The position numbers and the translations under genes were made by a program. A stretch of DNA of 19,781 bases from a virus (taxonomy: Duplodnaviria; Heunggongvirae; Uroviricota; Caudoviricetes), in the IMG/VR virus record IMGVR_UViG_2548876854_000015, positions 1 to 19,781 of that record, one strand, 5' to 3'. Position 1 is the first letter of the stretch, and every line of letters begins with the position of its first letter. Under the pieces are notes generated by a model. The model saw only the letters and a list, made by a program, of their open reading frames with translations, did no database searches and was not told the origin of the DNA. This document shows positions 1 to 18,328 of this stretch, piece by piece.

Positions 1-465
1 TTACTTTAAACACTGTTCGGTTATGTATTGCTGAGCACCTTCAAGTTGGGCCTGCATCATTACCAGTCGTTCCCGGAGGGTGAAATAATCCCGTTCAGCG
101 GTGTCTGCCAGTCGGGGGGAGGCTGCATTATCCACGCCGGAGGCGGTGGTGGCTTCACGCACTGACTGACAGACTGCTTTGATGTGCAACCGACGACGAC
201 CAGCGGCAACATCATCACGCAGAGCATCATTTTCAGCTTTCGCATCAGCTAACTCCTTCGTGTATTTTGCATCGAGCGCAGCAACATCACGCTGACGCAT
301 CTGCATGTCAGTAATTGCCGCGTTCGCCAGCTTCAGTTCTCTGGCATTTTTGTCGCGCTGGGCTTTGTAGGTAATGGCGTTATCACGGTAATGATTAACA
401 GCCCATGACAGGCAGACGATGATGCAGATAACCAGAGCGGAGATAATCGCGGTTACTCTGTTCAT
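1..465 (-). CDS. Rz: Rz i-spanin (inner-membrane spanin subunit)
   Basis: ORF 1..477 translation from [29 protein letters not shown]... is near-identical to lambda Rz as I recall it. Start taken at MNRV (ATG 465-463), directly abutting the endolysin stop (462-464). N-terminal TM segment. Confidence 0.9.
60..245 (-). CDS. Rz1: Rz1 o-spanin lipoprotein, embedded in Rz in the +1 frame
   Basis: 61-aa [27 protein letters not shown]...[15 protein letters not shown]: lipobox VVGC and proline-rich region as in lambda Rz1, lying wholly inside Rz. Confidence 0.85.
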
Positions 466-959
466 TGCTGACCCCACAAACAGATTTCACGCTCAATCTC
501 ACGACGAGTCATGAGACCTTTCCATTGCTTACCGCCAGCATATGTCCAGCGACGTAGCTGATCACATGCGCCTTTGATATCGCCCTGGTTTATTTTGCGA
601 AGAAGCGTCGATGTTCTGAAATTGCCAGCACCCACGTTGTAAACGAATGAGTAAAGAGCGCCGCGCGTTGTTTCCGGTATATCGACTTTGATGTACGGGT
701 TAATTTGTCTGGCGACAGTGGCAAGGTCTTTATTCAAGAGTGCTTTGCATTCTGCTTTGGTATACGTTTTACCGAGCATGATGTCTTTTCCTGTATGCCC
801 GTGACATACAGTCCATACACCAACAATATCTTTGTATGGTATGTAGCTGACACCTTCCAGACCATCGTTACCACTTGGGCCAGTGATTAACACTGATGCT
901 ATAGCAATTGCTCCGCCACCAATAGCAGCAGCAACGGCTTTTCGTAATGATGGAGGCAT
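462..959 (-). CDS. R: SAR endolysin (phage 21 R / RrrD-type lysozyme)
   Basis: 165-aa [30 protein letters not shown]... matches the DLP12/phage 21 lysozyme as I recall it, with a Gly/Ala-rich N-terminal signal-arrest-release segment. ATG overlaps the holin stop (TAATG at 957-961). Confidence 0.9.
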
Positions 960-1174
960 TATTCACCTCTCGCAGCCTTGCGCTTATCTTCTTTAATCTT
1001 GAAATAAAGGTTTGTCAGGTACGTCAGCAGGCCAAAAACCAGACTACCCAGCACACCGATTGCAGCCCACTGTGACGGAGTTACTCTATCGAGCAACTGT
1101 AAAAACCAGTAGCCAGCACTGCCTGCGGAGGTGCCATAGGCGACACCCGTTGTTAACTTATCCATGGATTTCAT
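959..1174 (-). CDS. S: Class II pinholin (S21-like), dual-start motif MKSM
   Basis: [26 protein letters not shown]...[17 protein letters not shown], 71 aa from the ATG at 1174. SD GAGGTGGGGG lies 5 nt upstream. The longer 102-aa ORF is an unsupported extension. Confidence 0.85.
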
Positions 1175-1514
1175 AACCCCCACCTCGCAGATGCGGGCGC
1201 TGTGTAATGGAAACAAAAAATGGCCACCAGCGGCCCGTAAAAAACACCCCGTCAAAAGCACCGGCATCCGCAGATGCCCTTTGCGTGGCGTTATTTGATG
1301 CGCGCCAGATGTGGCGCAAAGAAATGAAATAAGACTTATCGTAAATTAAGGTTAATTTGATGATTTAAACCACTTCTGAAGCTTAGTAGTATGAACATGT
1401 CCCCAGAAGGGGGCCAATACTTATTATTCTTCATGGACTTTGTCCCGCGGTCTTAATCCGACGACCGCGCTACTTTTCACCCTCTCGCAAATTGCTATCT
1501 AAAGGACGTTGTCC

Positions 1515-1547
1515 CACGAGTATTCCTGGATGCTCGTGTCTTTTTTT
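1515..1547 (+). terminator. Possible intrinsic terminator on plus strand (CACGAG stem, 12-nt loop, T7 run)
   Basis: cacgag-tattcctggatg-ctcgtg then tcttttttt. No annotated plus-strand gene upstream. Confidence 0.3.
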
Positions 1548-1560
1548 GTCCTGAGAAAGG

Positions 1561-1588
1561 AATAAAAAAAACCGCCAGATATGGCGGT
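1561..1588 (-). terminator. Intrinsic terminator on minus strand (candidate tR'-like terminator upstream of lysis genes)
   Basis: Perfect 7-bp stem ACCGCCA/TGGCGGT with a 4-nt loop, followed on the minus strand by a U9 tract (plus-strand aataaaaaaa at 1561-1570). Confidence 0.6.
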
Positions 1589-1953
1589 TGGTCAATGCAA
1601 GGGATGAATTTTTTAATTGTTATTAAACCGAGGCGTCGGGTGCCTCCCGAAGTATTCCGTGCTGTATGGATACTGTGGTTTCCCGCTAAACCGACTCTTT
1701 AAACCACCCTCGCACTGAGGAGCGCCTCTGTGGTGCGATTTACAACACCAGAATGATGCATCACCGACCCTGCTAGGAAATACAAAATCTCCACCGATAA
1801 TGCACCATTCTGCTGCCGTAAAAAAATCAGCACTGAGGCTACACCCGGCCTCAAATCATAGCCAGAGAACAGAATGCTTTTTCAAAACAACCTGCTCCCA
1901 CGTAATAAAAAAATACGCCAGTGCCGTAATACAATAAGGCTTGTTTCAAATGC

Positions 1954-2028
<75 letters not shown>

Positions 2029-2031
2029 ATA

Positions 2032-2107
<76 letters not shown>

Positions 2108-2340
2108 ATTGGTTCTTCAGGGGAGCGATATCACCGTTCAAAGAAGAGTTCCCCCTCAGAACCGTTTTCGATGATACGATTTAATATTCCAATCGCAACA
2201 ACAGCTTGCGTCAAGTTATGTAAATTTATTTATATGTTTTTATTTTATGTAAATAATTCACTTTCACTTAAAATATATACAACAACATATAAATAAATTT
2301 ATTTTGAAGGCGATGATTAAATGTCGTTTCTGATATCACA

Positions 2341-2375
2341 CCACAGAAACAACAAAACCCGCTCGATGGCGGGTT
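2341..2375 (-). terminator. Intrinsic terminator-like hairpin about 85 nt downstream of the Q-like gene
   Basis: 7-bp stem AACCCGC/GCGGGTT with loop tcgatg, followed on the minus strand by TTTTGTTGTTT. Confidence 0.45.
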
Positions 2376-2460
2376 CTATTAAAGTTTAATTGCGCTTGAT
2401 TCGCCTCGCGATACAGCTTTGCGAAGCGTAGCAAAATTGAAGCAGTTTATGCGTAAAAAA

Positions 2461-3003
2461 TCAAGCCGTTTTTTGAGCGAATGATTCTCGCATGGGAATG
2501 TATAGCGCATACTCAGCAACGGCCAACCAATTAGCAATTCGCTTTTCGCATGTGCTAAAACACCACTCTGGGTGTGCATCATTTAGCAATTCAGCCATTT
2601 TGCGTTTGGTCATCCCCCGCCCCTCATACCGTTGCCGAAGGACGCTAATCAATCCTGGATGCTCTGCCAGCACCTCACTTATGACCCGATCAATACATAA
2701 CGCCTCTGCATCAGTACAATGCGCCAGCCAGCTCTTTTGCTTACCGTTAATCATATCCCGCAAAAAAGCCTCAAGTTCAGACTTGTTCAGACCTGCTTTT
2801 TTCATCCTCCGGAGCGCCTCGTTAATTGCCGTTTTTGTCAGCTTTTTAGAGGCCAACAACTGGTTGAACATATTCCCCGTCTTACCGCCGCCAATATACG
2901 ACCAGCGCCCCCACATACGTAGTTTTCCCTGAATCCAGACACTTTCCAGCGTGGTGAGACGAAGGTGTTCTCCGCTTTTTCCTGTATTCGTTGGGTAAAT
3001 CAT
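2461..3003 (-). CDS. Putative late-gene antiterminator (Q-like) by position; family not recognised
   Basis: 180-aa ORF from the ATG at 3003 (MIYPTNTGKSGEHL...), preceded by AGGAGG. Its ATG overlaps the stop of the upstream ybcO-like gene (ATGA). Lies between nin-like genes and the tRNA/lysis region, where lambdoid Q sits. Sequence does not resemble lambda Q as I recall it. Confidence 0.45.
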   Translation of the reverse strand: MIYPTNTGKSGEHLRLTTLESVWIQGKLRMWGRWSYIGGGKTGNMFNQLLASKKLTKTAINEALRRMKKAGLNKSELEAFLRDMINGKQKSWLAHCTDAEALCIDRVISEVLAEHPGLISVLRQRYEGRGMTKRKMAELLNDAHPEWCFSTCEKRIANWLAVAEYALYIPMRESFAQKTA

Positions 3004-3290
3004 AAATATCCCTCCTTTCTCCAGATTTCTTGTGTGCGAAGAACACCTTCTGCATGCATCAGGCGTAATTCTTCTTTGGTGTAATCGATGGTTTTTACCC
3101 GCCCGTCGATTAGATCGTGGCATGAGCTACAGGCAATCGCCGCCTGCATATCGTGTGGTTTTGTCGCTGTTCCGCACGTTCCCGCCAGTCGGTAATGCGC
3201 CAGCACAGACGTTTCCGGATCGTGATTGCAGTAGCCAGGAATTCTGACGGTGCACATCTGCCCCCGCGCCGCTTTACGTAAATCCACCAT
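3000..3290 (-). CDS. ybcO: YbcO-like DUF1364 putative nuclease (nin region)
   Basis: 96-aa MVDLRKAARGQMCTVRIPGYCNHDPETSVLAH...CSSCHDLIDGR with a Cys/His cluster, resembling DLP12 YbcO from memory. Start overlaps the stop of the upstream gene. Confidence 0.7.
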   Translation of the reverse strand: MVDLRKAARGQMCTVRIPGYCNHDPETSVLAHYRLAGTCGTATKPHDMQAAIACSSCHDLIDGRVKTIDYTKEELRLMHAEGVLRTQEIWRKEGYL

Positions 3291-3889
3291 TACGCAAACT
3301 CCAGCAGCTGCGCGGCCACATTTTCGACTTGTTCCGGAGAGGAAAATTTACGGAACAGAATCCAGTTCCACAGCACATTCAGAACAGATTTATAAACCTG
3401 CTGAAACTCGGTTTCGTCCATATTCGCAAAAGCGATGGATTTCGCCCGACGCCCATGGCTACCGTCCGGATAAAAATGTTCGGTGTAAAATCCAGCCTGA
3501 ATGGTTACCCACTCGCGAAAAGCCTCAAACGACTTTAACAATGCCGTATCCCGGGTTCTGCGTGTCGCAACTGTATTCAGATATTGCTCTGCGGCATCAC
3601 TCAGGGCTGGCGTGTGTTCCCGACCAACTGATTCGCACAGGTAATCAACGAAACCAGACAGCAGTTCTCGTTCGCGAGGCGTGATCGCCCCACCGACCGG
3701 AGTCCAGTAATCGAATCCCAGTTGCAGGAGTTTGAAAAAACGCTTGTGGAATGCGTAGTTACGCACACGCTTAAAGTCTGCGTGTATCCACTCGCCTATT
3801 TTGATTTGATGCAGAAAATCACAACTCTCCGGCGTCGCCGGGAGAAGTAATCCGGAAGAGGTTTGTTTGACCAGTTGTATATGCGCCAT
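3290..3889 (-). CDS. Phage protein, DUF1367-like (nin-region neighbour of DUF1364)
   Basis: 199-aa ORF MAHIQLVKQTSSGLLLPATPESCDF...; family assignment is from memory of the DUF1367/DUF1364 gene pair and is unverified. Confidence 0.45.
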   Translation of the reverse strand: MAHIQLVKQTSSGLLLPATPESCDFLHQIKIGEWIHADFKRVRNYAFHKRFFKLLQLGFDYWTPVGGAITPRERELLSGFVDYLCESVGREHTPALSDAAEQYLNTVATRRTRDTALLKSFEAFREWVTIQAGFYTEHFYPDGSHGRRAKSIAFANMDETEFQQVYKSVLNVLWNWILFRKFSSPEQVENVAAQLLEFA

Positions 3890-4162
3890 TTCTCAATCTC
3901 TCGATGGCGCAGCGCAGCAGATGCCAGTTGTTCAGGCTGACGTATGAAGTATAAATAAACTGGCTCCAGTGTAAAGCCCCCACCTTAATGGAATAAAAAC
4001 CAAACAACAGATTGCTGGGATACAAACAACGCTTATTATTAAAAGCGGTTAAACAAATTAAATTTTAATGTTATGCAAATTTGTCAGATCACCATAATAT
4101 CTCATTTGAAAACCGCTGAAATAACAACCCTATCAGGGTTAATCATATTAAGGTGAGTAAAT

Positions 4163-4249
4163 ATGGAAAACAACAAATCTGCACATTACGTTCCTTTTTT
4201 ATCTGTAATACTTTTTGTTTTATGCTGTGCGTGGGCATTATTTTTATAA
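4163..4249 (+). CDS. Candidate 28-aa hydrophobic small protein (MENNKSAHYVPFLSVILFVLCCAWALFL)
   Basis: ATG with SD AGGTGAG 7 nt upstream; single predicted TM helix. Sits in the otherwise non-coding gap between hok and the DUF1367-like gene. No homolog recognised. Confidence 0.2.
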   Translation: MENNKSAHYVPFLSVILFVLCCAWALFL

Positions 4250-4357
4250 AAATATTCACAGATAAAATATACCCGCCAAAGCTGGTTAAGTGCGGGTGCG
4301 TTGAGGATGCCTGACACATCAGAGGTGGCGGGAGATTACTCTCCCGCCTGGTCACTC

Positions 4358-4513
4358 TTACTCTCTAGATTCGTAGTCTACGAAGACAGCGACCTCCGTC
4401 TGGCCGGTTCGGATTCGCACCTCGCAGAGGTCTTTCCTCGTTACCAGTGCCGTCACTATGACGGTTAAACAGATGACGATCAGGGCGATTAACATCGCCT
4501 TTTGCTGCTTCAT
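4358..4513 (-). CDS. hok: Hok/Gef-family type I toxin (51 aa)
   Basis: MKQQKAMLIALIVICLTVIVTALVTRKDLCEVRIRTGQTEVAVF... matches the Hok family almost residue for residue from memory. The GC-rich hairpin GGCGGGAG/CTCCCGCC at 4327-4348, just 3' of the stop, is consistent with a hok mRNA 3' stem. Confidence 0.9.
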   Translation of the reverse strand: MKQQKAMLIALIVICLTVIVTALVTRKDLCEVRIRTGQTEVAVFVDYESRE

Positions 4514-4940
4514 AGCCTGCTTCTCCTTGCCTTTCGGCACGTAAGAGGCTAACCTACATGTGTTCAGCATGGATTGAGCCTCAGATTAATGTTAAGCGTC
4601 CTGCAAGACGCGTAATGTTAACTGGGGCTTTTCTCTATCTGCCTTTTGGTGTTCATGCCTGAGACAGATAGCCTCAAGCACCCGCAGCGATTTTTACTTA
4701 ACTCTTCTTTTCACGCAAACCGTTTTTATCCTCAACGTAAATTTTACCAATATCGCCTAACACATCTCCCCTGCCCTGACGATGCTTACCTCTTTACACA
4801 GCCCCCTATTTATGTATTATCTTTTACAAACAACCAGTTAAGAGCTATCGGTGGGTGGGTTCGCCCTGCGGTAGCTTTTCCTTTATACATTGCATCTATT
4901 TATGTTCTAGTATATTCCTATATGTTCAAAAGGACTTTTC

Positions 4941-5873
4941 ATGCACAGCGTTAATTTCTATTCATTCCGCGTATTGACCCATAAAGGCAGTCGAGCCAGC
5001 AAAAAGCTTAATGAATTGGGTTTAAGTAATAAAAAAACGGCATATGAACTTTTTGTTGATTATTTTACTCTATATAAAAACACCCCCATCGAGTTTGGCG
5101 TATCCAAAACTAAAATATCTCTAGAACAACACGCTAAACTTCACTTTGATAACACAAAGAAAATTATATATGGTTATATAAAAGTTGGGAAATATGGAGA
5201 AAGTAGTGAAATAAAGGATGTAAAACTCAAAAAAATCCACTACAGGACAACTGCTTATGATGTAACACTCAAAGAACGTTATATTTTAATATACCTACCA
5301 GACACCCTTGAAGAAGGAATTATTGCATTCCATTCTTGCGATAATATTTCTGCTCGAGGTGTCCTTTCTGATTCTATCACTGAATATCTAAAAAACAAAT
5401 TTCAACTCGAAGCAAGAATCAATCCATTACATCATAAGAAAATCCCTCAATATATTCTCAATTCCGAATTAAAACAAATTAAGGCTCAAGGATATAAAGC
5501 ACCAAAAGACATTACTGATTCCTTTGGTCAAAACAAAACAAACATCAAGACAGACTTAATAATAAAAGCAAACGATGGCATGTTCGGAAGTTTCAGGGAT
5601 TTAAGAAACAAGAATATAGGAAACATCATTGAGATTATTGAAGATAAATGTGATGCAATAAAAGTAAGCTTACAGCTCGGCAGTCGGACTGTCGTTTTCA
5701 ATTATGATACCATACTAAAAAAAGGAATTTCCGCAGAGTTAGATGATAATGATCTAAAAATCGACCCATTAACAGGCATACCTGATCTAACAGCACTTCA
5801 TGACACGATAAAAAACCTTTCTAATGATATATTGTTAGAACTGCATAGCGGAAACAAAGGGGTGATCATATGA
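4941..5873 (+). CDS. Unknown 310-aa soluble Lys/Asn-rich protein; first gene of the AT-rich cassette
   Basis: Long ORF with SD AAGGA 6 nt before the ATG. About 30% G+C by hand count (19/60 in one line) against about 53% in a flanking phage line (32/60). No catalytic motif recognised. Confidence 0.7.
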   Translation: MHSVNFYSFRVLTHKGSRASKKLNELGLSNKKTAYELFVDYFTLYKNTPIEFGVSKTKISLEQHAKLHFDNTKKIIYGYIKVGKYGESSEIKDVKLKKIHYRTTAYDVTLKERYILIYLPDTLEEGIIAFHSCDNISARGVLSDSITEYLKNKFQLEARINPLHHKKIPQYILNSELKQIKAQGYKAPKDITDSFGQNKTNIKTDLIIKANDGMFGSFRDLRNKNIGNIIEIIEDKCDAIKVSLQLGSRTVVFNYDTILKKGISAELDDNDLKIDPLTGIPDLTALHDTIKNLSNDILLELHSGNKGVII

Positions 5874-6424
5874 ATAAAATAAATGTGCTGGGTGTAATAA
5901 TAAAACACTACAAAACAATGTCAGATCAGCGTGGAACAATGTTGATGAGCGACATTATCGTACATTTTATTGTTCCGCTATCTCTTTCTTTCGTTCTGTG
6001 CTGGACATACGGAATAATGAAACCGGCAATTGCTTCCGTCTTCGTTAACTTCGGGGCTATTACAACAGCACTATTAATGAGTGCAGTAATAATGATTTAT
6101 GAACAAAAACAAAAAACCATTACTAAGATATCAGACATAATTGAAGGACACAAATCCCGAGACAAATTGATATCATTAAACACTAACAAAACCATATATG
6201 AGCAGTTATGCCACAACGTCGCTTATGCAATATTAACTTCAATAGTATTGGTTATATTTTCAGTGATAATATATTTCCTGCCTGACAATGCAGTGGATTT
6301 AATGAAATGGTATTTTCGCGCACCTGCATATATTGTTAGCTTTTTAGCCTATACATCCTTTTTTATCACTGTTATAACGTTCTTAATGGTAATCAAAAGG
6401 TTTAGCACAATTTTAGATAATTGA
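5870..6424 (+). CDS. Unknown 184-aa integral membrane protein (4 predicted TM helices); second gene of the cassette
   Basis: ATG overlaps the upstream stop (ATGA at 5870-5873) with SD GGGGTG. Hydrophobic segments IIVHFIVPLSLSFVLCWTYGI, AIASVFVNFGAITTALLMSAVIMIY, VAYAILTSIVLVIFSVIIYFL, YIVSFLAYTSFFITVITFLMVI. 18/60 G+C in one line. Confidence 0.7.
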   Translation: MNKINVLGVIIKHYKTMSDQRGTMLMSDIIVHFIVPLSLSFVLCWTYGIMKPAIASVFVNFGAITTALLMSAVIMIYEQKQKTITKISDIIEGHKSRDKLISLNTNKTIYEQLCHNVAYAILTSIVLVIFSVIIYFLPDNAVDLMKWYFRAPAYIVSFLAYTSFFITVITFLMVIKRFSTILDN

Positions 6425-6435
6425 ACAGCGGAACA

Positions 6436-6467
6436 GCCGCCCTTTCGGGCGGCCTCCTGATGTTTTG
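6436..6467 (+). terminator. Hairpin GCCGCCC-tttc-GGGCGGC after the cassette, possible terminator
   Basis: Perfect 7-bp GC-rich stem 12 nt after the cassette stop; the downstream T-run is interrupted (ctcctgatgttttg). Confidence 0.4.
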
Positions 6468-6557
6468 AGGGTGCAGGAACCCCTCCGGTTAAGGATTTAA
6501 TAAAAATCACTTCTGATTTAAATTTTCAGTGTTTTGTTGTCAGGTGATTTATCGCCT

Positions 6558-6869
6558 TTACGCTTCAGCTTTATTTCGCAACCAGACACAAACCGGGCCA
6601 TCTTCGGTGTCATGTATTGAACCAATAAACCATCCATCGCCCTCTGGTCGTTCCGGTTCCCATGCAGAAATATCAGCATCACAAGCATCAAAGTCAGCAC
6701 ATCCTTCGTCTCTGAAGCAGAGGACGTATTGAAGTTTATTTTCCTCCATCCATGCGTTAAACTCTTCCGTTGAAATATGTTCTCTACCATCACAGAATTT
6801 TTCATATTCAGGATGCGTCCAGCAGCCATATTCATCACGTACTACTGGTATTTCTCTAATTTCTTTCAT
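6558..6869 (-). CDS. Unknown acidic Cys-containing 103-aa phage protein
   Basis: MKEIREIPVVRDEYGCWTHPEYEKFCDG... with SD GGGAGAA 6 nt upstream. About 28 Asp/Glu against about 10 Lys/Arg by hand count. Confidence 0.6.
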   Translation of the reverse strand: MKEIREIPVVRDEYGCWTHPEYEKFCDGREHISTEEFNAWMEENKLQYVLCFRDEGCADFDACDADISAWEPERPEGDGWFIGSIHDTEDGPVCVWLRNKAEA

Positions 6870-7119
6870 TTCTGTTCTCCCACGTTTTCAGACTTTCACC
6901 ACAGAACGGGCAAAAACACATTGCAACACCACGACCGATATATTGCCCAGAGTGAATTTGAGCAATATCTATGCCTGACTCGCCGGTGTTTATGTTCACA
7001 CGTTCCGGGATAAATATGCCTTTACTCTTGAATGTTGGATTTCCATATTCGAGAGATTTTGCCAAAGCCGCGCACGGTTCTATCTTGTTGCCATTAACCT
7101 GACATTTTGATGCGTTCAC
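6856..7119 (-). CDS. Unknown 87-aa protein with C-terminal CxCxxC motif
   Basis: Start taken at GTG 7119, overlapping the upstream stop (GTGA), with a strong SD AGGAGGT 6 nt upstream. The ATG at 7197 would overlap the upstream gene by 82 nt and has no SD. Confidence 0.5.
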   Translation of the reverse strand: MNASKCQVNGNKIEPCAALAKSLEYGNPTFKSKGIFIPERVNINTGESGIDIAQIHSGQYIGRGVAMCFCPFCGESLKTWENRNERN

Positions 7120-7532
7120 AGTACCACCTCCTGAAAATTTCCCTGATAGAAATCCAGTACACGCTGCATAGCTTCGCTCTGACGGCACTCGCGACAAATT
7201 ATGTTCTGTCGTCTGTTGTAACAGCGTATTTCACCATCCGGCAATGAATAAATCAGCTCGGGGTCTCTCTTCTTTTTCGCTGTACCTTTCGACATCTCTT
7301 TACGGGCCTTTATCCAGTCCTTGCGCGCCTGCTCCGAAGGAAATATCCCGTGCCCCGAACCATATACTATGCCACTGCCCACCAGCTCTTTCGCCAGAAC
7401 TTCTATCAGGTGTCTCGTTGCTCCGGTTTCATCTTCCAGTTGCTTACGCGTTTTCCTCCCGTCTCTGCGCACCAGTTCCACAATACGCGCCTTCAGTTGC
7501 TCCCGGTATTCAGGTGTAAAAACGTTTCTCAT
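7116..7532 (-). CDS. Unknown 138-aa phage protein
   Basis: Start taken at ATG 7532 (MRNVFTPEYREQLKARIVELV...) with SD GTGAGG, 7 nt after the upstream stop. The longer ORF from 7589 overlaps the upstream gene. Confidence 0.55.
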   Translation of the reverse strand: MRNVFTPEYREQLKARIVELVRRDGRKTRKQLEDETGATRHLIEVLAKELVGSGIVYGSGHGIFPSEQARKDWIKARKEMSKGTAKKKRDPELIYSLPDGEIRCYNRRQNIICRECRQSEAMQRVLDFYQGNFQEVVL

Positions 7533-7539
7533 AAGCGCC

Positions 7540-8301
7540 TCACTTTTCCAACACAACGCGACTGGTGGAATCGACAATCTGTCGGACAATATCCCGGTGT
7601 TTATTCAGCTCCCGCAGTGCGGCGCAGACACGCTCCCACTTCTGGACATGATTTTTCGCCCGGCGCAGTTCGCGGTTTGCCAGATGCAGCGATGGTAAAA
7701 TCAGGTCATCCGCCCGCGTTTCGGTGAACGATGGCAGCGACTGCACAATGTCCGCCACAGTTCCTGTTTTAATTTCTTCCTGTATTGCAGCTTCCTGTGC
7801 TGGTAACGCAACACCTGCTGGCTGAGGAAAGGCTTTACCATCAGTTTCCGTTACCAATGCAGCTTTCGGCTCTGCTGGTAAATTATCGTCCGGCATGCAG
7901 TAACGAAATTTACCGTTCTGATTTACGCGAATCAGGCGACCTTTGCTGATTGCCTGAGCCAACGTTGAAGCCACTTTGCGTGATGTGATACCGAACAGCG
8001 TAGCCAGCTCATCAGCCGTTTGTGGTCCGCGTTGTTCAATCGTCGCGGTTAAATCGCACTCTGAGATTTTCGCTACTGTTGCCGTGGTGGTTTCTTCCGG
8101 CAGTTCTGCCTGCTCTGGCTGTTCCTGCTGAACGTTGTTATCAGCCACACGCCAGGTGTATACGCTTTTATCAACGAAGCCAGCCTTTTTAAGTTCCCAC
8201 AGCTCGTTCAGCACTTCTTCACGACTGATATCAAGTCGCGCAGCCAGTTCTACCGACGTGGCTTTTCCCATTGCTTTCAGTACATCAAAAACGGTTTCCA
8301 T
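7540..8301 (-). CDS. ydaW: YdaW-like (DUF1627) protein, apparently full length
   Basis: [45 protein letters not shown]... N-terminus as in Rac ydaW from memory; SD GGGAGGAAA. K-12 ydaW is a truncated pseudogene. Confidence 0.65.
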
Positions 8302-8323
8302 TAAAATTTCCTCCCGGTAAAAA

Positions 8324-9070
8324 TCACTTCGCAATTCCTGGCTGGACGACATTCGGACGCCAGCTCTCCCAGTTAAAATTCACCCATCGCCCGCCGTTCA
8401 TGGTCATGCGATCCATAATCCGCTCGCCGAGCAATGTTTTCATGGCCTCATAGTTCAGGTTTGTCAGCATCCCCACGCTGCGCATCGACGCTGTCCGGCG
8501 ATCAACAATCTGGTGCAGCACCACCTGCTCGTTTTTTGTCTCGCGCTGAATGCCAATTTCATCAAGAACCAGCAGATCCACTTGGCACAGTTCCCGCAAA
8601 AATTTTTCGCCTGATTGCCCGTCGTCATAGCTGGCGTGTAGAGCACTCATGACATCAGCCACGGTAACCACAATCACTGTCTGGCCATCTTTCAGCAGGC
8701 GATTCCCGATAGCCGCCGCCAGATGGTTTTTTCCGGTACCAGGTTTTCCGCTGAACGCAAAATTTGTACACCCGGTCATCAGTTCATCAGCGATAGATTT
8801 CGCCTGGTTCAACGCGTATCGCTGACCGTCGTTCTGCACCTGGTAATTCGCAAACGAGCATTTGCGGTGCAATGGCTGGATGCCAGAGCGATTCAGAATT
8901 TTTTCCACCCGCAACTGACGATTCTGACGGTTGATCTCCTCACAACGTTTCTGGCCTTCGGAAAGTTGCCACTCGCGCCACTCCGCTACCGTTTTGAATG
9001 GGGCGGTTACATGTGGCGGGGCCAGTCTGCGGATACGTTCAAGAATGCCTCCTGCCGCAATATTTTTCAT
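8324..9070 (-). CDS. ydaV: DnaC-like replication/helicase-loader ATPase (YdaV)
   Basis: 248-aa ORF with Walker [12 protein letters not shown] and Walker B LLVLDEIG, directly downstream of ydaU. Length matches K-12 YdaV. Confidence 0.85.
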
Positions 9071-9076
9071 GGTCAG

Positions 9077-9934
9077 TTACCCCCTGAAGCCTGGCGGGAT
9101 CGCACTATCCGGTAACGAGACGGTGTTAACCTGTCGGAGTAACGTCTCAGGTCGAACACCTTTTGGCGCGAACAAGCCCTGGTATTCATTGGCGATGCTG
9201 TGTCGAATCACCTGCTCAGGTGAAAAACCCTGCTGGCGGAATTTTTCCAGCTCCCGTATCGCCCCGTTAGCGCCCTGCTCCGTTCGAATCGGTTTACGCA
9301 ATGCCTGGCGAAATTCAACCCACTCACGCCAGAGCGAGACAGAAATCCAGTTCGGCAAAGCAATATCCAGAGGGTCAAACTTTTTGACACCTCGATTCCC
9401 CCGGGGGGGATTTAGGGGGGGATCTGTTTTTAGATCTTTATCTGTATCTTTATTAGTTGCCTTTGTGTTGACATCATGTTCAAACACCACTTCAACATCT
9501 GTTTGAACACCTGTTAAATTTCTCTCTTGTTTTGTTTGAACATCTGCTTCCTTTCTGCTTCTTCTGGCCTGAACCGATGCTTTTCCTGCGGCTGATTTTT
9601 TGGTTAATTTTTCCCTGACTGATGCCAGATCTTCCTCAATCCGAAGATGCACCCATTCCTCGCCGTTATCGCAAAAAAACTCCCGCAAGGACGGTTCAAC
9701 ATCAGCCCATCGCTCGTTAGTCAGACGGGCAATTTTTGCCAGCCTGTTTTTAGGTATTGGCTTTCCTGTTTGCCAGTAATTGAACATCAGCAACAAATAC
9801 GCACCATGCTCCTCTGCTGACAAATGCATGGTGTCAGCCAGGTAATCAGCTATGTACAGTTGCATGTATGGTAATGCGGCCATAATTGCCCCGTATGATG
9901 CTGCCCGATTGCTTAGAATAAGCACAAACAGCAT
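9077..9934 (-). CDS. ydaU: Replication initiator, O-like (YdaU, DUF1376)
   Basis: 285-aa ORF containing MAALPYMQLYIADYLADTMHLSAEEHGAYLLL, matching K-12 YdaU length. An alternative start at ATG 9883 is possible. Low-complexity linker in the middle. Confidence 0.8.
   Translation of the reverse strand: MLFVLILSNRAASYGAIMAALPYMQLYIADYLADTMHLSAEEHGAYLLLMFNYWQTGKPIPKNRLAKIARLTNERWADVEPSLREFFCDNGEEWVHLRIEEDLASVREKLTKKSAAGKASVQARRSRKEADVQTKQERNLTGVQTDVEVVFEHDVNTKATNKDTDKDLKTDPPLNPPRGNRGVKKFDPLDIALPNWISVSLWREWVEFRQALRKPIRTEQGANGAIRELEKFRQQGFSPEQVIRHSIANEYQGLFAPKGVRPETLLRQVNTVSLPDSAIPPGFRG
9370..9545. repeat. Ori-like iterons and palindromes inside the ydaU linker region
   Basis: Three copies of a 10-bp palindromic core (TGTTCAAACA at 9477-9486; TGTTTGAACA at 9500-9509 and 9533-9542), plus GTCAAActtTTTGAC, CCCCCGGGGGGG and GATCTgtttttAGATC nearby. 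Confidence 0.45.
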
Positions 9935-9946
9935 GGAAACTTTTGC

Positions 9947-10369
9947 TTAATGAACAATGACAGAATCGTCGGAAGACCCGCCGCCGCTGAAATGCGCTTT
10001 CCGGTAAACGGCCTGGACTGCATCATCATGCGCATCAATTGCCGTACTTAACGCTTCCTGCGCCGCCAGTAATGCACGGCGTTCCAGGGTATCGAAGATG
10101 CAGAGTCGGTGACGCAGCTCGCGAGGAAGAATTGCCAGAACCGCAGGGATCAATTTCTGAATTTTTTCCCTTTGCGCATTCGTTTCACCTTTCAACCAAC
10201 GGTGATAGATATTCTGCTGATTGTTCCAGTCCTTGCCTGGAACCAGGGGCAATTCGCCGCCCCCCTGGCGCAGATATTCTTCAGTAATGGCATTGGCTAC
10301 CCATGCCTGCCCTTTTTCGGCTGCTAGGGCAAACAACACTGATTCGATGTGCTCATGCTTGATTTTCAT
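9947..10369 (-). CDS. ydaT: YdaT (cII-position early protein, toxic on derepression in Rac)
   Basis: 140-aa MKIKHEHIESVLFALAAEKGQAWVANAIT..., matches K-12 YdaT in length and sequence from memory. Confidence 0.85.
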   Translation of the reverse strand: MKIKHEHIESVLFALAAEKGQAWVANAITEEYLRQGGGELPLVPGKDWNNQQNIYHRWLKGETNAQREKIQKLIPAVLAILPRELRHRLCIFDTLERRALLAAQEALSTAIDAHDDAVQAVYRKAHFSGGGSSDDSVIVH

Positions 10370-10391
10370 GAATCATTTGCCTCTTGATGTT

Positions 10392-10688
10392 TCAGGTATG
10401 ATCAAATGAGGATTTGTTACTGTCATTTAGTTGCTTCACTGACATATTCTGCGAACAACATGCCGAACGTCGTAAATATGACCAGTCAATATCAGGACGA
10501 AGTTCTTCGCACAGAACCTCACCTCTTGTTGCACGTTCAATTGCTGGACATCTCTCGGCAGGCAATTGACGTACCCCTTTGATCCATTGATTTACGCTTG
10601 GAGGTGATACACCTAAAAGCCTAGCCATTGCTGATTGCCCACCGACAACAGCACAAGCTTGCTTGAATGAATAGTTCTCTTTTTTCAT
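10392..10688 (-). CDS. ydaS: YdaS (Cro-like HTH regulator)
   Basis: 98-aa MKKENYSFKQACAVVGGQSAMARLLGVSPPSVNQWIKG..., HTH; transcribed divergently from racR. Confidence 0.85.
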   Translation of the reverse strand: MKKENYSFKQACAVVGGQSAMARLLGVSPPSVNQWIKGVRQLPAERCPAIERATRGEVLCEELRPDIDWSYLRRSACCSQNMSVKQLNDSNKSSFDHT

Positions 10689-10715
10689 CGAATGAACTCC
10701 AAAAACACACAGAAA

Positions 10716-10792
10716 TATTAGGCGACGCCTAATATAAATGTCAATAGGCTATGCCTAATGCAATGAGGGTAGGGATTGCCTAATGCAATGAG
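10716..10792. promoter_or_regulatory. racR/ydaS divergent operator region
   Basis: Perfect palindrome TATTAGGCG-a-CGCCTAATA (10716-10734), TAGGC-tat-GCCTA (10745-10757), and a 16/17 direct repeat ATGCCTAATGCAATGAG / TTGCCTAATGCAATGAG (10751-10767 and 10776-10792). Shared half-site TTAGGC. Confidence 0.6.
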
Positions 10793-10811
10793 CATAGGAG
10801 AATATTAAGCA

Positions 10812-11288
10812 ATGCTTAGTGGTAAAGACTTAGGCCGAGCGATAGAGCAGGCCATTAACAAAAAAATCGCATCGGGATCCGTCAAATCAAAGGCGGAGGT
10901 CGCACGCCACTTCAAAGTCCAACCACCATCAATTTATGACTGGATTAAGAAAGGCTCCATAAGTAAAGATAAACTTCCAGAATTATGGCGTTTCTTTTCT
11001 GATGTTGTTGGTCCAGAGCATTGGGGGCTTAACGAATACCCCATACCAACCCCCACCAATTCAGATACAAAAAGTGAACTTTTAGATATAAACAACCTTT
11101 ATCAAGCAGCCTCTGATGAAATAAGAGCGATTGTAGCTTTCCTGTTATCTGGAAATGCTACAGAACCAGATTGGGTTGACCACGATGTTCGCGCCTACAT
11201 AGCAGCGATGGAAATGAAAGTGGGTAAGTATCTGAAAGCTCTAGAATCTGAACGGAAAAGCCAGAACATCACAAAAACTGGAACTTAA
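10812..11288 (+). CDS. racR: RacR prophage repressor (CI-like)
   Basis: 158-aa MLSGKDLGRAIEQAINKKIASGSVKSKAEVARHFKVQPPSIYDWIKKG..., N-terminal HTH; matches K-12 RacR length. Confidence 0.9.
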   Translation: MLSGKDLGRAIEQAINKKIASGSVKSKAEVARHFKVQPPSIYDWIKKGSISKDKLPELWRFFSDVVGPEHWGLNEYPIPTPTNSDTKSELLDINNLYQAASDEIRAIVAFLLSGNATEPDWVDHDVRAYIAAMEMKVGKYLKALESERKSQNITKTGT

Positions 11289-11360
11289 ACTTATATGGTC
11301 TGACGGAAAACTCCTGGATTCCGTTATTTAACCCCCCATCACTTTCTCCTGTCGTCATCA

Positions 11361-11425
11361 CCTATTAGGTTACGCTCAAAACATTAGGCATAGCCTATTG
11401 ACAATCAATTAGGCATTACCTATAG
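11361..11425. promoter_or_regulatory. Second operator-like cluster, inverted copy of the racR/ydaS operator, upstream of ydaG-ydaF
   Basis: ATTAGGCATAGCCTATTGACA (11383-11403) is the exact reverse complement of 10739-10759; further TTAGGC/TTAGGT half-sites at 11364-11370 and 11409-11414. Confidence 0.5.
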
Positions 11426-11595
11426 TTCCAGCATACCACCCACCCCGCCCCACAGAACGCCTGGCAATACTTCGAGTTACCAGGCCGTGGTAAGGGGTTA
11501 AGTAGCCAGCCCGAGGCGTATGAACATGACGGCGGGATTCAAATTTTGCAGTGCAGCAGTTAGTTCCGCCACCCGGCGTTAAGGGGAGAGATAAG

Positions 11596-11730
11596 ATGGT
11601 GCATTACGAAGTAGTTCAGTATTTGATGGATTGTTGCGGCATCACTTACAACCAGGCTGTGCAGGCTTTACGCAGCAACGACTGGGATCTCTGGCAGGCA
11701 GAAGCCTCTATCCGCAACAACAAGATGTGA
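11596..11730 (+). CDS. ydaG: YdaG small protein (44 aa)
   Basis: MVHYEVVQYLMDCCGITYNQAVQALRSNDWDLWQAEASIRNNKM, SD GGGGAGAG; below the 60-aa cut-off of the ORF track, translated by hand. Confidence 0.7.
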   Translation: MVHYEVVQYLMDCCGITYNQAVQALRSNDWDLWQAEASIRNNKM

Positions 11731-11740
11731 GGTGCGAAAA

Positions 11741-11896
11741 ATGCAAAAAATCGACCTCGGCAATAACGAATCCATGGTGTGCGGCGTGTTCCCCAACCAA
11801 GATGGAACGTTCACTGCTATGACGTATACCAAAAGCAAAACATTTAAAACCGAAACTGGTGCGCGCCGATGGTTGGAGAAGCACACAGTAAGCTAA
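11741..11896 (+). CDS. ydaF: YdaF small protein (51 aa)
   Basis: MQKIDLGNNESMVCGVFPNQDGTFTAMTYTKSKTFKTETGARRWLEKHTVS, translated by hand; 3' end overlaps the sieB stop convergently. Confidence 0.7.
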   Translation: MQKIDLGNNESMVCGVFPNQDGTFTAMTYTKSKTFKTETGARRWLEKHTVS

Positions 11897-12381
11897 CGAT
11901 TAAAACGTCTACTCCTGCTGTTCCAGAATAACTTCATAAAATGGGAGTATTTTTCGGTGACGAGATAATAAGAACAGTTTGCGCTATCACTCTGATGTTG
12001 AATGATGCCCTTCCGTTCTAATTTTTTCATAACCGGGTTACGGCAAGGAGAAGTGATAATAAGATTTCCGGTTTTAAGGAAATCTTTAAATACAGCTATT
12101 TCTTTCTCAGATAAACGAAGCAATACTCGTTGCTCTGGTAGTAATGAATAATGCTTTTGAATATGTGCTCGCAATCTTGAGAAGGAAATGGCGACCACGA
12201 AAGAAAAGGCAAAAACGATAATCTGAAAGAGCCAAGGTATTTCAGTATAAGCATTGAATGCGACAGTAAACTCTTTCGGTATCAGCCAGAGAGTGAGGCC
12301 AAAAATGATAATCGTATACATAAGTCTTTCGAGTGGCTCGTTAGCAAAAAGTTTCAACAATGGAGTAAATACATCCAACAT
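11893..12381 (-). CDS. sieB: SieB superinfection-exclusion membrane protein
   Basis: 162 aa from MLDVFTPLLKLFANEPLERLMYTIIIFGLTLWLIPKEF... with TM segments. The 203-aa upstream extension is rejected. Confidence 0.85.
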   Translation of the reverse strand: MLDVFTPLLKLFANEPLERLMYTIIIFGLTLWLIPKEFTVAFNAYTEIPWLFQIIVFAFSFVVAISFSRLRAHIQKHYSLLPEQRVLLRLSEKEIAVFKDFLKTGNLIITSPCRNPVMKKLERKGIIQHQSDSANCSYYLVTEKYSHFMKLFWNSRSRRFNR

Positions 12382-12599
12382 ATCAATAACTCTCAACTGT
12401 AAGGGTATTGAAATGTTAACACAAGCTCTCGCTGTAGGGGTATAGCCGAGACCACCGAAGCCCGGAGGTGGTGAAATAAAACTGGGCGCAACACGAAGGC
12501 GCATTTCCGATATCCATAAAGAGTCGGTCTTGTCTGTTAAATTTAAATGGTGGGAGTGCGCCTCCGGTTGTAAATAACGACATTGCTGTGTGTAGTCTT

Positions 12600-12646
12600 G
12601 GCGGCATCAGTTTTTTCTTGAAGTTCGGCTGATGTCCGCCCTTTTT
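12600..12646 (+). other. Long-loop hairpin GGCGGCATCAG...CTGATG(T)CCGCC followed by CTTTTT, upstream of kilR
   Basis: 11-bp stem with one bulge and an 18-nt loop, then a T5 run. Could attenuate read-through from the immunity region into the kil operon. Confidence 0.3.
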
Positions 12647-12811
12647 AAAGTGAATTTTGTGATGCGGTGAATGCGGCTAAGCGCACGCGGAACAGTTAAA
12701 AGCATCAGTGTTATGGGGGGATTATCCGGCGTTAATTGTTAACTGGTTAACGTCACCTGGAGGCACCAGGCACCGCATCAACAAAGTTCATTTGTGAAAA
12801 TGGAGATAATT

Positions 12812-13033
12812 ATGATTGCTCATCACTTCGGAACTGATGAAATACCTCGTCAGTGTGTGACTCCTGGTGATTATGTTCTTCATAACGGCCGGACATATAT
12901 TGCCTCGGCAAACAATATTAAAAAGCGAAAACTTTATATTCGAAACCTGACCACAAAAACATGCATTACTGACTGCATGATTAAAGTCTTCCTCGGTCGT
13001 GATGGTTTACCTGTAAAGGCGGAGTCATGGTGA
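12812..13033 (+). CDS. kilR: KilR (FtsZ/cell-division inhibitor)
   Basis: 73-aa [46 protein letters not shown]..., SD GGAG 7 nt upstream. Confidence 0.85.
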
Positions 13034-13203
13034 TGACTAAGAAAATAAAATGTGCTTACCACCTTTGCGATAAAGAAGTTAAAGAAAGCAAAAGCATTAA
13101 AAGACCACTTCATTTCATGCGTGGAGTTATCCCAACGACGGAAATGAAAAAATATTGTAGTGAAATATGTGCCGAAAAAGACCAGATGGCACACGAACTT
13201 TAA
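13033..13203 (+). CDS. ydaE: YdaE small Cys-rich zinc-binding protein (56 aa)
   Basis: [56 protein letters not shown], translated by hand; start overlaps the kilR stop. Alternative in-frame ATG at 13027. Confidence 0.7.
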   Translation: MTKKIKCAYHLCDKEVKESKSIKRPLHFMRGVIPTTEMKKYCSEICAEKDQMAHEL

Positions 13204-13277
13204 TTAACTGACTATGCGAAACTGAATTTATGCCAGCAATGGCAGGGATTCGCTCAACCTTAATTAAGGAGAAAAAC

Positions 13278-13553
13278 ATGATTACCAGTTATGAAGCCAC
13301 TGTTGTAACTACTGATGACATTGTTCACGAAGTTAATCTGGAAGGAAAGCGTATTGGCTACGTGATTAAAACAGAAAATAAAGAAACCCCATTCACTGTG
13401 GTTGATATCGACGGTCCATCAGGCAACGTTAAAACACTTCACGAAGGTGTCAAAAAAATGTGCCTGGTGCATACCGGAAAGAATCTGCCCGCAGAAAAAA
13501 AAGCCGAATTTCTGGCAACTCTAATTGCAATGAAATTAAAAGGTGAAATCTGA
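13278..13553 (+). CDS. racC: RacC
   Basis: 91 aa from MITSYEATVVTTDDIVHEVNLEGKRIGYVIKTENKETPF..., SD AAGGAG. Confidence 0.85.
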   Translation: MITSYEATVVTTDDIVHEVNLEGKRIGYVIKTENKETPFTVVDIDGPSGNVKTLHEGVKKMCLVHTGKNLPAEKKAEFLATLIAMKLKGEI

Positions 13554-13558
13554 AAGAA

Positions 13559-13583
13559 ATAGCCTGCGTATGACGCAGGCTAT
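13559..13583. other. Perfect 11-bp inverted repeat with 3-nt loop between racC and recE
   Basis: atagcctgcgt-atg-acgcaggctat, 6 nt after the racC stop. No U-tract on the plus side; a TTCTTTC-type run follows on the minus side. Confidence 0.4.
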
Positions 13584-13654
13584 GAACAGTGTGTATCCGG
13601 CAAGATCATTCACTGAACAAAACGAATTTTAATCTGAGTTGAGGTTAAAAAACA

Positions 13655-16600: not shown

Positions 16601-16726
16601 CGCCGGACGCTACGCCAGATAAACGAAGCCCTGGAGACAAACAACTGGCCAGCACCGATTACCGAAAGTTATACCGACGAATTAAACGACTTTGATCTTC
16701 GTCGTCTTGAAGCACTGAGCATCTGA
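13655..16726 (+). CDS. recE: RecE-family exonuclease VIII, 1023 aa, with divergent expanded C-terminal nuclease region
   Basis: The first roughly 590 aa are near-identical to K-12 RecE as I recall it. The C-terminal part is only distantly alignable to the RecE nuclease core (RVRPDIEIR...ICADVKSVS against RCRPDKIIPE...IMDVKTTAD) and carries an extra segment of about 150 aa with an internal repeat ([10 protein letters not shown] / [11 protein letters not shown]). Confidence 0.85.
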
Positions 16727-16737
16727 GGAAGGACACA

Positions 16738-17790: not shown

Positions 17791-17800
17791 TATTGACTTT

Positions 17801-17838
17801 GGCGGTGTAGCCTCACCGCCATCACAAAATTTTATTTT
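17801..17838 (+). terminator. Possible terminator: hairpin GGCGGTG-tagcct-CACCGCC then A/T-rich tract
   Basis: 7-bp stem 11 nt after the stop of the annealing-protein gene; the T-run (ttttatttt) begins 9 nt after the stem, so this is weak. Confidence 0.35.
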
Positions 17839-17853
17839 ATGAGAGAAAAGACA

Positions 17854-18048
17854 ATGCGGTATGAAAAAGTCAAACCATGCCCTTTTTGTGGTTGTCCATC
17901 AGTAACGGTGAAAGCCATTTCAGGATATTACCGCGCGAAGTGTAACGGATGCGAATCCCGAACCGGCTATGGTGGAAGTGAAAAAGAAGCACTCGAACGA
18001 TGGAATAAACGAACCACTGGAAATAATAATGGAGGTGTTCATGTATAA
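17854..18048 (+). CDS. ralR: RalR/Lar (restriction alleviation protein; type I toxin of the ralR/ralA pair in Rac)
   Basis: 64-aa MRYEKVKPCPFCGCPSVTVKAISGYYRAKCNGCESRTGYGG..., four-Cys zinc ribbon. The ralA antisense partner was not located. Confidence 0.85.
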   Translation: MRYEKVKPCPFCGCPSVTVKAISGYYRAKCNGCESRTGYGGSEKEALERWNKRTTGNNNGGVHV

Positions 18049-18229
18049 AATTACCGCCACTATTGAAAAGGAAGGTGGCACTCCTACTAACTGGACAAGG
18101 TACTCAAAAACAAAATTAACCAAATCAGAATGCGAAAAAATGCTCTCAGGTAAAAAAGAAGCAGGCGTTTCCAGAGAGCAGAAAGTAAAACTGATAAATT
18201 TTAATTGCGAGCAACTTCAGTCCTCGTGA
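18029..18229 (+). CDS. ydaC: YdaC (DUF1187) small protein
   Basis: MEVFMYKITATIEKEGGTPTNWTRYSKTKLTKSECEKMLSGKK...; start overlaps the ralR 3' end, SD GGAGGT. An alternative start at 18041 (MYKIT) is possible. Confidence 0.65.
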   Translation: MEVFMYKITATIEKEGGTPTNWTRYSKTKLTKSECEKMLSGKKEAGVSREQKVKLINFNCEQLQSS

Positions 18230-18328
18230 ATTGCATTGTATTCAAATTAAAACTTCATAGCTGATTATTAATAATCAACATCGGGCGTCAATTTCAGTCT
18301 AACATTGGCGCCTGCCAGAGGTGATGCG

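Follow-up and report, generated by a model that had tools for sequence, protein, structure and literature searches.

A complete hok/mok/sok locus of the hokW-sokW type beside a divergent gene pair in a Rac-like prophage of Escherichia coli

The 19,781-nucleotide stretch of DNA analysed here (positions 1 to 19,781 of IMG/VR record IMGVR_UViG_2548876854_000015; hereafter, the window) is a Rac-like lambdoid prophage of Escherichia coli. On its minus strand, between the replication genes and a block of DUF1367/DUF1364/DUF1133 genes, lies a hok gene that in all probability belongs to an intact, self-contained and autonomously regulated hok/mok/sok type I module, the orthologue of hokW-sokW of the Stx phages 933W and Sp5. 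Every element of such a module is present, intact and conserved and has the predicted structure, and the locus is nearly identical to one that has been tested experimentally (Table 1). An earlier note on this DNA had described a Hok-family type I toxin that stands alone and probably has mok/sok-type control of its own; this is supported, and the two tests proposed there were positive. The note had also proposed that hok shares a control region, and forms one accessory islet, with a divergent cassette; this part fared less well.

Toxin, leader frame, antisense RNA and their relatives

The 51-residue protein that had been recognised as Hok (its minus-strand orientation was left implicit) matches Pfam PF01848 HOK_GEF (E 4.3e-23; 81 bits, cutoff 22) and has a single N-terminal hydrophobic segment (residues 1-30). 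It is labelled "Hok/Gef family protein" by RefSeq in strain MEI003 (NZ_CP071263), which is 99.9% identical to the window over positions 4250-4950, and shares 49 of its 51 residues with HokW of 933W. As stated in the earlier note, no relBE-like genes precede it: the next gene upstream of hok is the divergent 310-residue reading frame that starts at 4941. The search for an overlapping mok frame on the minus strand was positive, yielding 70 codons in frame with hok; the 70-residue architecture and the 19-residue N-terminal extension are those of annotated mokW, and mokC of K-12 is arranged alike. In the R1 system, translation of mok is required for translation of hok (PMC9841398). The GAGG Shine-Dalgarno sequence of mok is paired with an ucb-like element (AGCCCC, 4624-4629) in the predicted full-length fold of the mRNA and with a dcb-like element (AGCCUC, 4545-4550) in the local fold; the names of these elements follow PMC9841398.

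The gene for the antisense RNA, Sok, was mapped to the plus strand from the annotated sokW misc_RNA of 933W. Its product is predicted to consist of a 14-nt single-stranded 5' tail, a long hairpin (4576-4630) and a terminal UUUU (-28.9 kcal/mol, z -4.3). The tail is complementary to AAUCCAUGCUGAAC, which includes the mok AUG, and differences from sokW of 933W are confined to the hairpin loop. Both the Sok-like promoter and the terminator for which a plus-strand search had been proposed are thus represented by candidates, the latter by the terminator hairpin of the 71-nt RNA. The northern probe used for sokW RNA (YO-592; PMC8621323) matches the window exactly, and the primers YO-421/YO-422, which served to construct a promoter-less sokW in the same study, replace exactly TAACCTA. 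Two plus-strand reading frames in this region (4558-4662 and 4646-4954) were treated as spurious overlaps.

The covariance-model scan proposed in the earlier note returned a match to Rfam RF01794 ("sok") on the minus strand from 4683 to 4508 (118.9 bits, gathering score 59; E 5.6e-27; full model, 1-157). The match lies on the hok-sense strand and extends from GGGUGCUUGAGG, the 5' end of the mRNA, to the hok AUG, which means that RF01794 describes the leader of the hok mRNA. An annotation taken straight from this model, which is named "sok antitoxin" but reports positions 4508-4683 of the hok-sense strand, would place Sok on the wrong strand; the real Sok gene occupies 4562-4632 of the plus strand. 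This is a useful caution for automated annotation.

The closest relative with experimental data is the mokW/hokW/sokW locus of the Stx2 phage 933W (NC_000924.1, 58460-58734), with which positions 4283-4730 share 95.3% identity. Identity reaches 100% in the sok promoter, the 5' tail of Sok, the initiation regions of mok and hok, and Hok residues 1-49, and in the stretch from the Sok hairpin to Hok residue 49 the two sequences are set apart by one synonymous change; the strength of the Rfam match and the identity to the 933W locus exclude chance. The mok leader peptide is identical in the two loci, and both encode a 71-nt Sok with a long hairpin inserted relative to the Rfam consensus. They differ in the -10 box of hok, in a small number of paired positions of the leader and 3' hairpin, and in their setting: hokW of 933W is located near the genome end, downstream of ea22-like genes, whereas the present copy lies between replication genes and the DUF1367/1364/1133 block, beside the divergent cassette. 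The presence of the same module with the same boundaries in another genomic context argues for its autonomy. HokW of the Sakai prophage Sp5 is toxic and is neutralised by sokW expressed from its own promoter (Takada et al. 2021, PMC8621323); upon treatment with mitomycin C, sokW disappears and HokW appears in a RecA-dependent manner, and deletion of hokW-sokW halves phage release (PMC8621323). The Sp5-derived primers of that study follow the 933W sequence at sites where the window differs, and both of its northern probes are exact matches to the window.

The hok/mok/sok locus of plasmid R1 (PMC9841398) has the same organisation, with a 70-codon mok, a GAGG Shine-Dalgarno sequence for mok, tac and fbi elements, ucb/dcb-like boxes, a 3' stem-loop, and a Sok antisense to the mok initiation region, but HokW is only 44% identical to Hok of R1 in amino acid sequence (PMC8621323). 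The present copy differs from that of R1 also in its location on a prophage rather than a plasmid and in its 71-nt Sok with a longer hairpin. Prophage copies of hok are not known to mediate post-segregational killing.

Among the loci of K-12, hokD (relF) of the Qin prophage belongs to the same Hok subfamily and occupies the same position in a lambdoid prophage. Its coding region, 3' hairpin, fbi and terminator are homologous to those of the window (92.6% over 4271-4527), but relBE stands in place of the promoter, tac, the leader, the sok gene and the mok start, which makes hokD the third gene of the relBE operon; this replacement explains why the homology to Qin stops at 4527. Close relatives of the present locus are named hokD by the NCBI annotation pipeline, and comparison of the sequences indicates that the window carries the complete form of the hokD-type locus, with the leader retained. 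Its full-length form is of use for comparison, because K-12 has only the form truncated by relBE. Two further loci, from E. coli ECMA0423 (L019) and Photorhabdus khanii (L050), are likewise truncated at the 5' side; they lack the tac end or the whole leader but keep the coding region and fbi, and thereby resemble hokD of K-12. In hokC (gef)/mokC/sokC of K-12, the leader, the mok frame and the position of Sok align with those of the window, sokC lying opposite hokC, and the Hok encoded here shares about 78-80% identity with proteins of the hokC-type group; sokC is shorter, as it lacks an 18-nt hairpin insertion, and hokC is immediately followed by IS186 in K-12.

At least 80% of the module is covered in 3923 of 5426 complete E. 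coli genomes, and a recent survey found hok to be enriched in prophages. The module is therefore already known, and in itself of little import: it is a further copy of a system present in most E. coli genomes, with a closest relative that has been tested experimentally.

A side observation concerns the hok coding sequence. The codon for Tyr47 (UAC, 4375-4373, minus strand) is contained in a CUACGAA motif (4370-4376), which is the tRNA-Arg anticodon-loop motif recognised by TadA and is flanked here by a 4-bp stem (UAGA/UCUA). By analogy with hokB/C/D/E, for which A-to-I editing has been reported (bioRxiv 10.1101/2025.08.07.668861), this codon is a candidate TadA editing site that would be recoded from Tyr to Cys.

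Predicted structure and conservation of the hok mRNA

Folding of a 398-nt hok RNA (4683 to 4286) yields a minimum free energy (MFE) structure of -161.6 kcal/mol (z -7.0), in which the first 12 nt are paired with CCUCAACGCACCC (4306-4294), the arrangement known as the tac/fbi lock. When the 3' 40 nt are removed in silico, the tac end refolds into a local hairpin and the GC-rich hairpin is left at the 3' end. This hairpin, which the earlier note had already pointed out, follows the stop codon of hok at 4348-4327 and, as judged from the predicted fold, is likely to form the 3' end of the processed mRNA that can be translated and to act as a barrier to exonucleases. The truncated mRNA of R1 loses its toxicity when its last stem-loop is mutated (PMC9841398). 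Interpretation of the hairpin at 4348-4327 as a transcription terminator was rejected, since it lacks a U tract and is followed by fbi. A terminator-like hairpin is located beyond fbi, and Qin-type copies (such as L019 and a second locus, L020) carry a perfect version of it (AACCCGC-UUCG-GCGGGUU, followed by a U run).

Conservation of the structure was assessed in an alignment of 32 distinct full-length hok mRNAs from Escherichia, Kluyvera, Photorhabdus, Pantoea, Citrobacter and Erwinia, with loci gathered from one genome per species. The structure predicted for the window can form standard pairs in 86.8% of the cells of this alignment, compared to 37-44% when the partners are slid against each other; pairs with changes on both sides number 38 versus 13-19 in the slid controls, and the covariation score is 0.164 versus 0.05-0.07, although the projected structure, having been derived from one of the aligned sequences, is favoured over these controls. 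The GC-rich 3' hairpin (helix 16) is paired in 96.9% of cases, with compensatory changes at four pairs, and six such pairs are found in helix 4, which contains the GAGG of mok.

In each of the 32 homologues, tac and fbi form a duplex of 12 bp (-18 to -25.6 kcal/mol). At its fourth position, U:A occurs in 20 homologues, C:G in 10, and U:G in two. MAFFT offsets the inner half of fbi by one column where the bulged C is absent, which leads to an undercount of pairing in positions 7-12 of helix 1 that is corrected by an anchored duplex calculation. A comparison of duplex energies between cognate and non-cognate tac/fbi partners was not discriminating, as the changes seen are accommodated by G-U pairs and an average of 63% of the non-cognate partners bound as well as the cognate one; it was replaced by per-pair covariation counts.

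The 5' end of the mRNA is preceded by a putative hok promoter, whose position is aligned with those of hokC and 933W. The -10 region reads TAAAAAT here (4690-4696), TAGAAT in 933W, E24377A and strain 64.1, and TATAAT in hokC.

Table 1. Features of the hok locus, the adjoining interval and the divergent cassette (positions refer to the window).
Feature	Position	Strand	Details
hok coding sequence	4358-4513	-	51-aa membrane toxin MKQQKAMLIALIVICLTVIVTALVTRKDLCEVRIRTGQTEVAVFVDYESRE; from open reading frame list, Pfam and comparison with 933W
mok frame	4358-4570	-	70 codons; ATG 4570-4568; in frame with and overlapping hok; from open reading frame list
mok Shine-Dalgarno sequence	4579-4582	-	GAGG; 8 nt upstream of mok AUG
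Full-length hok mRNA (putative)	4262-4683	-	+1 at G4683; 3' end at about 4286 (just after fbi) or about 4262 (degenerate terminator)
hok promoter (putative)	4690-4718	-	-35 TTGCGT (4718-4713), 17-nt spacer, -10 AAAAAT (4695-4690), 6 nt to G4683; assigned from position
tac element	4672-4683	-	GGGUGCUUGAGG; 5' end of mRNA; pairs with fbi in full-length MFE structure
fbi element	4294-4306	-	CCUCAACGCACCC; complementary to tac
GC-rich 3' stem-loop	4327-4348	-	GGCGGGAGAG-UAAU-CUCCCGCC; just after hok stop codon
Degenerate intrinsic-terminator-like hairpin	4262-4286	-	ACCAGC-UUUG-GCGGGU, then UAUAUUUUAU; outer edge of module
Sok antisense RNA gene	4562-4632	+	71 nt; mapped from annotated sokW misc_RNA of 933W
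sok promoter (putative)	4527-4555	+	-35 TTGCCT (4527-4532), 17-nt spacer, -10 TAACCT (4550-4555), 6 nt to +1 G4562
Junction spacer	4731-4790		60 bp; no feature detected
Cassette promoter candidate	4793-4820	+	TTTACA, 16-nt spacer, TATTAT; from promoter scanner, 10/12 matches
Cassette 5' leader element	4853-4881	+	Hairpin GGGUGGGUUCGCCC (4853-4866), then UGCGGUAGCUUUUCC; flagged as terminator-like by scanner
Cassette gene A	4941-5873	+	310 aa; RexA/RdgC-like predicted fold
Cassette gene B	5870-6424	+	184 aa; four-helix membrane protein; overlaps gene A by 4 nt
GC hairpin	6436-6453	+	GCCGCCC-TTTC-GGGCGGC; after gene B, at outer right edge of the 2.19-kb block ending at 6460

Regulation, role and alternative explanations

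The features of the hok mRNA agree with the mechanism of R1 as summarised in PMC9841398. By this mechanism, a weak promoter (4718-4690) would give rise to an mRNA of about 400 nt starting at G4683, in which pairing of tac with fbi (4306-4294) and sequestration of the mok Shine-Dalgarno sequence would prevent both translation and binding of Sok. Slow trimming of the 3' end to the GC-rich hairpin (4348-4327) would free tac and allow the leader to refold, so that the mok initiation region would become accessible either to ribosomes or to Sok, an unstable 71-nt antisense RNA from the plus strand (4562-4632) whose 5' tail would cover the mok AUG. As long as Sok is made, the resulting duplex would be destroyed; if its synthesis stops, mok and then hok would be translated, and the 51-residue Hok peptide would insert into the inner membrane and depolarise it. 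By analogy with hokW-sokW, the most likely role of the module is in prophage induction, when Sok would be lost and Hok produced, aiding lysis and phage release. Stabilisation of the prophage and abortive exclusion of other phages are possible side effects.

Several points weigh against a functional module with this role. The deviating -10 box may entail weaker transcription of hok in this strain, and a consensus promoter scan picked up neither of the two promoters, that of hok or that of sok, which are assigned by homology and position. Beyond fbi, the terminator hairpin differs from that of the Qin-type copies by an A-G mismatch and an interrupted U tract, the last two residues of Hok are RE instead of the EK of HokW, and the slid controls of the structural comparison are at a disadvantage. 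Transcription, processing, toxicity and role are inferred by homology. In addition, a survey of Hok proteins found that chromosomal hokA, hokB and hokC were unable to mediate post-segregational killing (bioRxiv 10.1101/2025.08.07.668861), which renders the biological role uncertain even if the module works.

Some of these deviations would also fit a decaying, non-functional relic, as represented by several chromosomal hok loci of K-12, where copies have been inactivated (IS186 lies directly downstream of hokC, and hokD has lost its leader). Such decay is very improbable here, however, because the hok and mok reading frames, both Shine-Dalgarno sequences, the sok promoter, Sok, tac, fbi and the 3' hairpin are all intact, the core shares 100% of its sequence with hokW-sokW, which has proved active in experiments, and the differences from 933W in the stems preserve pairing.

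Alternatively, hok might be expressed mainly by read-through from the early rightward operon (ydaS to ydaV and onward, minus strand) upon induction. The gene follows the pR-side genes (10688 down to 6518) in the same orientation and precedes the DUF1367/DUF1364/DUF1133 genes, the tRNA genes and the lysis genes; early transcription toward the latter would therefore cross hok. Also hokW of 933W is co-directional with upstream early genes, and the production of HokW depends on RecA and induction (PMC8621323). Still, expression mainly by this route seems unlikely, since the putative promoter lies at the canonical distance from the conserved 5' end of the mRNA and is aligned with those of hokC and 933W, and since tac, which covaries with fbi, must be 5'-terminal to pair with it. 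Moreover, a read-through transcript would first have to cross 1.5 kb of the cassette in antisense orientation and the hairpin at 6436-6453. The scenario that the earlier note had set against its own proposal, transcription of hok only by read-through, is at odds with a promoter position of its own that is conserved in hokC and 933W. As an additional trigger, e.g., through head-on interference with the sok promoter, read-through is compatible with an autonomous module.

The claim of linked regulation concerned the interval between hok and the divergent gene, the length of which had been given correctly as 427 bp (4514-4940; the divergent frame starts at 4941). The mok/sok-type control elements expected in this interval are indeed present (mok, Sok and the leader), but only in its hok half (4514-4730). 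The interval also holds the putative promoter and leader of the cassette (about 4791-4940), but instead of being shared, it consists of two separable halves. Homology to 933W ends at 4730, just past the -35 box of hok, and this half occurs without the cassette in 933W; the cassette half, in turn, is kept upstream of hok-less copies of the cassette in Serratia, Pantoea and Providencia, in which both hexamers of the candidate cassette promoter are conserved in position. The two promoters point away from each other, and their -35 boxes are separated by about 75 bp. Neither inverted repeats nor operators turned up in a search of 4684-4960. Upstream of the cassette, the plus strand contains direct repeats 90 bp apart (4773-4787 with 4863-4877; the 10-mer CTATTTATGT is repeated exactly at 4806-4815 and 4896-4905), which may represent a duplicated promoter-like segment or chance. 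In the leader element of the cassette, GGGUGGGUUCGCCC followed by GCGGUAGCUUUUC is kept in Serratia, Pantoea and Providencia, and changes in the stem among the four genera preserve pairing; the element could be an attenuator or a binding site.

The physical linkage of hok and the cassette in E. coli is nevertheless strong. The cassette is present at >95% identity in 22 of 5426 genomes and adjoins hok in every one of them, and two diverged copies are also located beside hok (strain 64.1, by annotation; STS63-1-E, by matching coordinates). In all, hok plus the junction is covered to at least 80% in 37 genomes; about 15 that match the junction, besides those named, probably carry the cassette beside hok as well. 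A 2.19-kb block (4271-6460) is shared with E24377A at 97% identity in an otherwise unrelated prophage backbone (rem, DUF968, RusA, Q), and position 4271 is also where the homology to Qin begins. Relative to strain 64.1, the hok half is more similar (82-92% identity) than the junction 4731-4790 (73%) and the cassette genes (72-75%); relative to E24377A, the pattern is reversed (87-95% in the hok half, 98-99% in the cassette half). This suggests that the adjacency is old and that the hok half recombines separately.

These observations speak for a single unit in which hok and the cassette are coupled via the 427-bp interval, be it by a common operator, by supercoiling between divergent promoters, or by addiction that stabilises the cassette. 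The adjacency has persisted while the cassette diverged by about 25%, the sequence of the junction has changed about as fast as that of the cassette, and hairpins mark the outer ends of both transcription units. Coupling is improbable all the same, because 933W and thousands of other genomes carry the hok half (up to 4730) in the absence of the cassette, whereas the cassette occurs with its own promoter and leader but without hok in Serratia, Pantoea and Providencia; these hok-less loci have neither an Rfam sok match nor a tblastn match to Hok. The interval is devoid of regulator genes, inverted repeats and anything resembling an operator, its -35 boxes are spaced by about 75 bp, and the different identities of the two halves in E24377A reflect separate recombination histories. 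In the survey, hok was not enriched near known defence systems. The proposal of one accessory islet thus holds for the physical linkage in E. coli but not outside this species, that of linked regulation lacks a basis in the interval, and the arrangement of the sequence indicates that the hok module is regulated on its own.

A more far-reaching version, for which there is little likelihood, views the block 4271-6460 as a composite membrane-attacking islet that aborts phage infection, with hok/sok functionally coupled to the RexA/RexB-like pair described below, which belongs to a family of about 577 representative clusters that lacks a Pfam model. Because the block lies in the path of early rightward prophage transcription, read-through upon induction could hit the cassette and the sok promoter together. 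If this were true, the transcript would at the same time be antisense to the cassette and run head-on into the sok promoter, switching off exclusion while Hok is released to aid lysis.

The divergent cassette and the surrounding prophage

The two proteins of the cassette have no match in Pfam, NCBIfam or PADLOC, and PHROGs assigns them only to families of unknown function. Gene A does not match the Pfam model of RexA (PF15969), and a profile search of PDB sequences found nothing. Its predicted fold, however, is RexA/RdgC-like, and RdgC proteins are among its viral fold matches. With hhalign, a shallow profile of gene A gave a probability of only 0.1-0.5% against lambda RexA alone or the RexA family alignment, whereas a deep profile gave 23% against the RexA family (E 8.7e-4; 119 co-linear columns). 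For the product of gene B, a protein of four long helices is predicted (pLDDT 86), and it resembles RexB in having four hydrophobic segments, but hhalign detected no similarity to RexB, and a Foldseek search of BFVD gave no match at E ≤0.001. The pair is conserved in Serratia and Pantoea, whereas the second gene is apparently disrupted in Providencia. A profile search with gene A retrieved 577 representative clusters, mostly of about 300-320 residues, and a scan of 78 members of this family revealed no consistent Pfam match.

The genomic contexts in other genera resemble defence hotspots: in Pantoea the cassette is found in a P4-like satellite, and in Providencia in a tmRNA island that also encodes a reverse transcriptase. 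The systems used for comparison were RexA/RexB of lambda and the RexAB-type system of Pseudomonas putida (PMC11077077, PMC12894663). A RexAB-type pair would be expected to adjoin the immunity repressor gene and to share its transcript, whereas the cassette lies about 4.4 kb from racR (10812-11288) and has a putative promoter of its own. Based on the predicted folds, the cassette is a reasonable candidate for a distant RexA/RexB-like exclusion pair rather than an assigned member. As a candidate from a sizeable unannotated family that is stably linked to hok in lambdoid prophages of E. coli, it is a reasonable target for phage challenge.

On the minus strand of the prophage, ydaS-ydaT-ydaU-ydaV (10688 down to 7540) are followed by small reading frames and, beyond hok, by the DUF1367/DUF1364/DUF1133 genes (3889 down to 2461), two tRNA genes and the lysis genes; racR, kilR, recE and ralR/RalA are located further right on the plus strand. 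The tRNA genes (1957-2107, minus strand), which separate the DUF1133 gene from the lysis genes, are annotated as tRNA-Thr and tRNA-Gly in MEI003. The antitoxin small RNA RalA was detected at 18047-18225 on the minus strand (Rfam RF02694, 215 bits), opposite an 86-codon reading frame in the position of ralR (17969-18229, plus strand). Judging from these matches, RalR/RalA, the type I pair of Rac, would be a second system with an RNA antitoxin in the same prophage.

Convergent with hok is an unannotated reading frame of 28 codons (MENNKSAHYVPFLSVILFVLCCAWALFL; 4163-4249, plus strand), which is preceded by an AGGTGA Shine-Dalgarno sequence and encodes one hydrophobic segment. Of 5426 E. coli genomes, 1176 contain the surrounding 400 bp; none of 15 sampled matches has an annotated feature in this region, and the length of the frame is kept in a 76%-identical relative that lacks hok. 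By these sequence features, it probably encodes a real small membrane protein of the prophage backbone.

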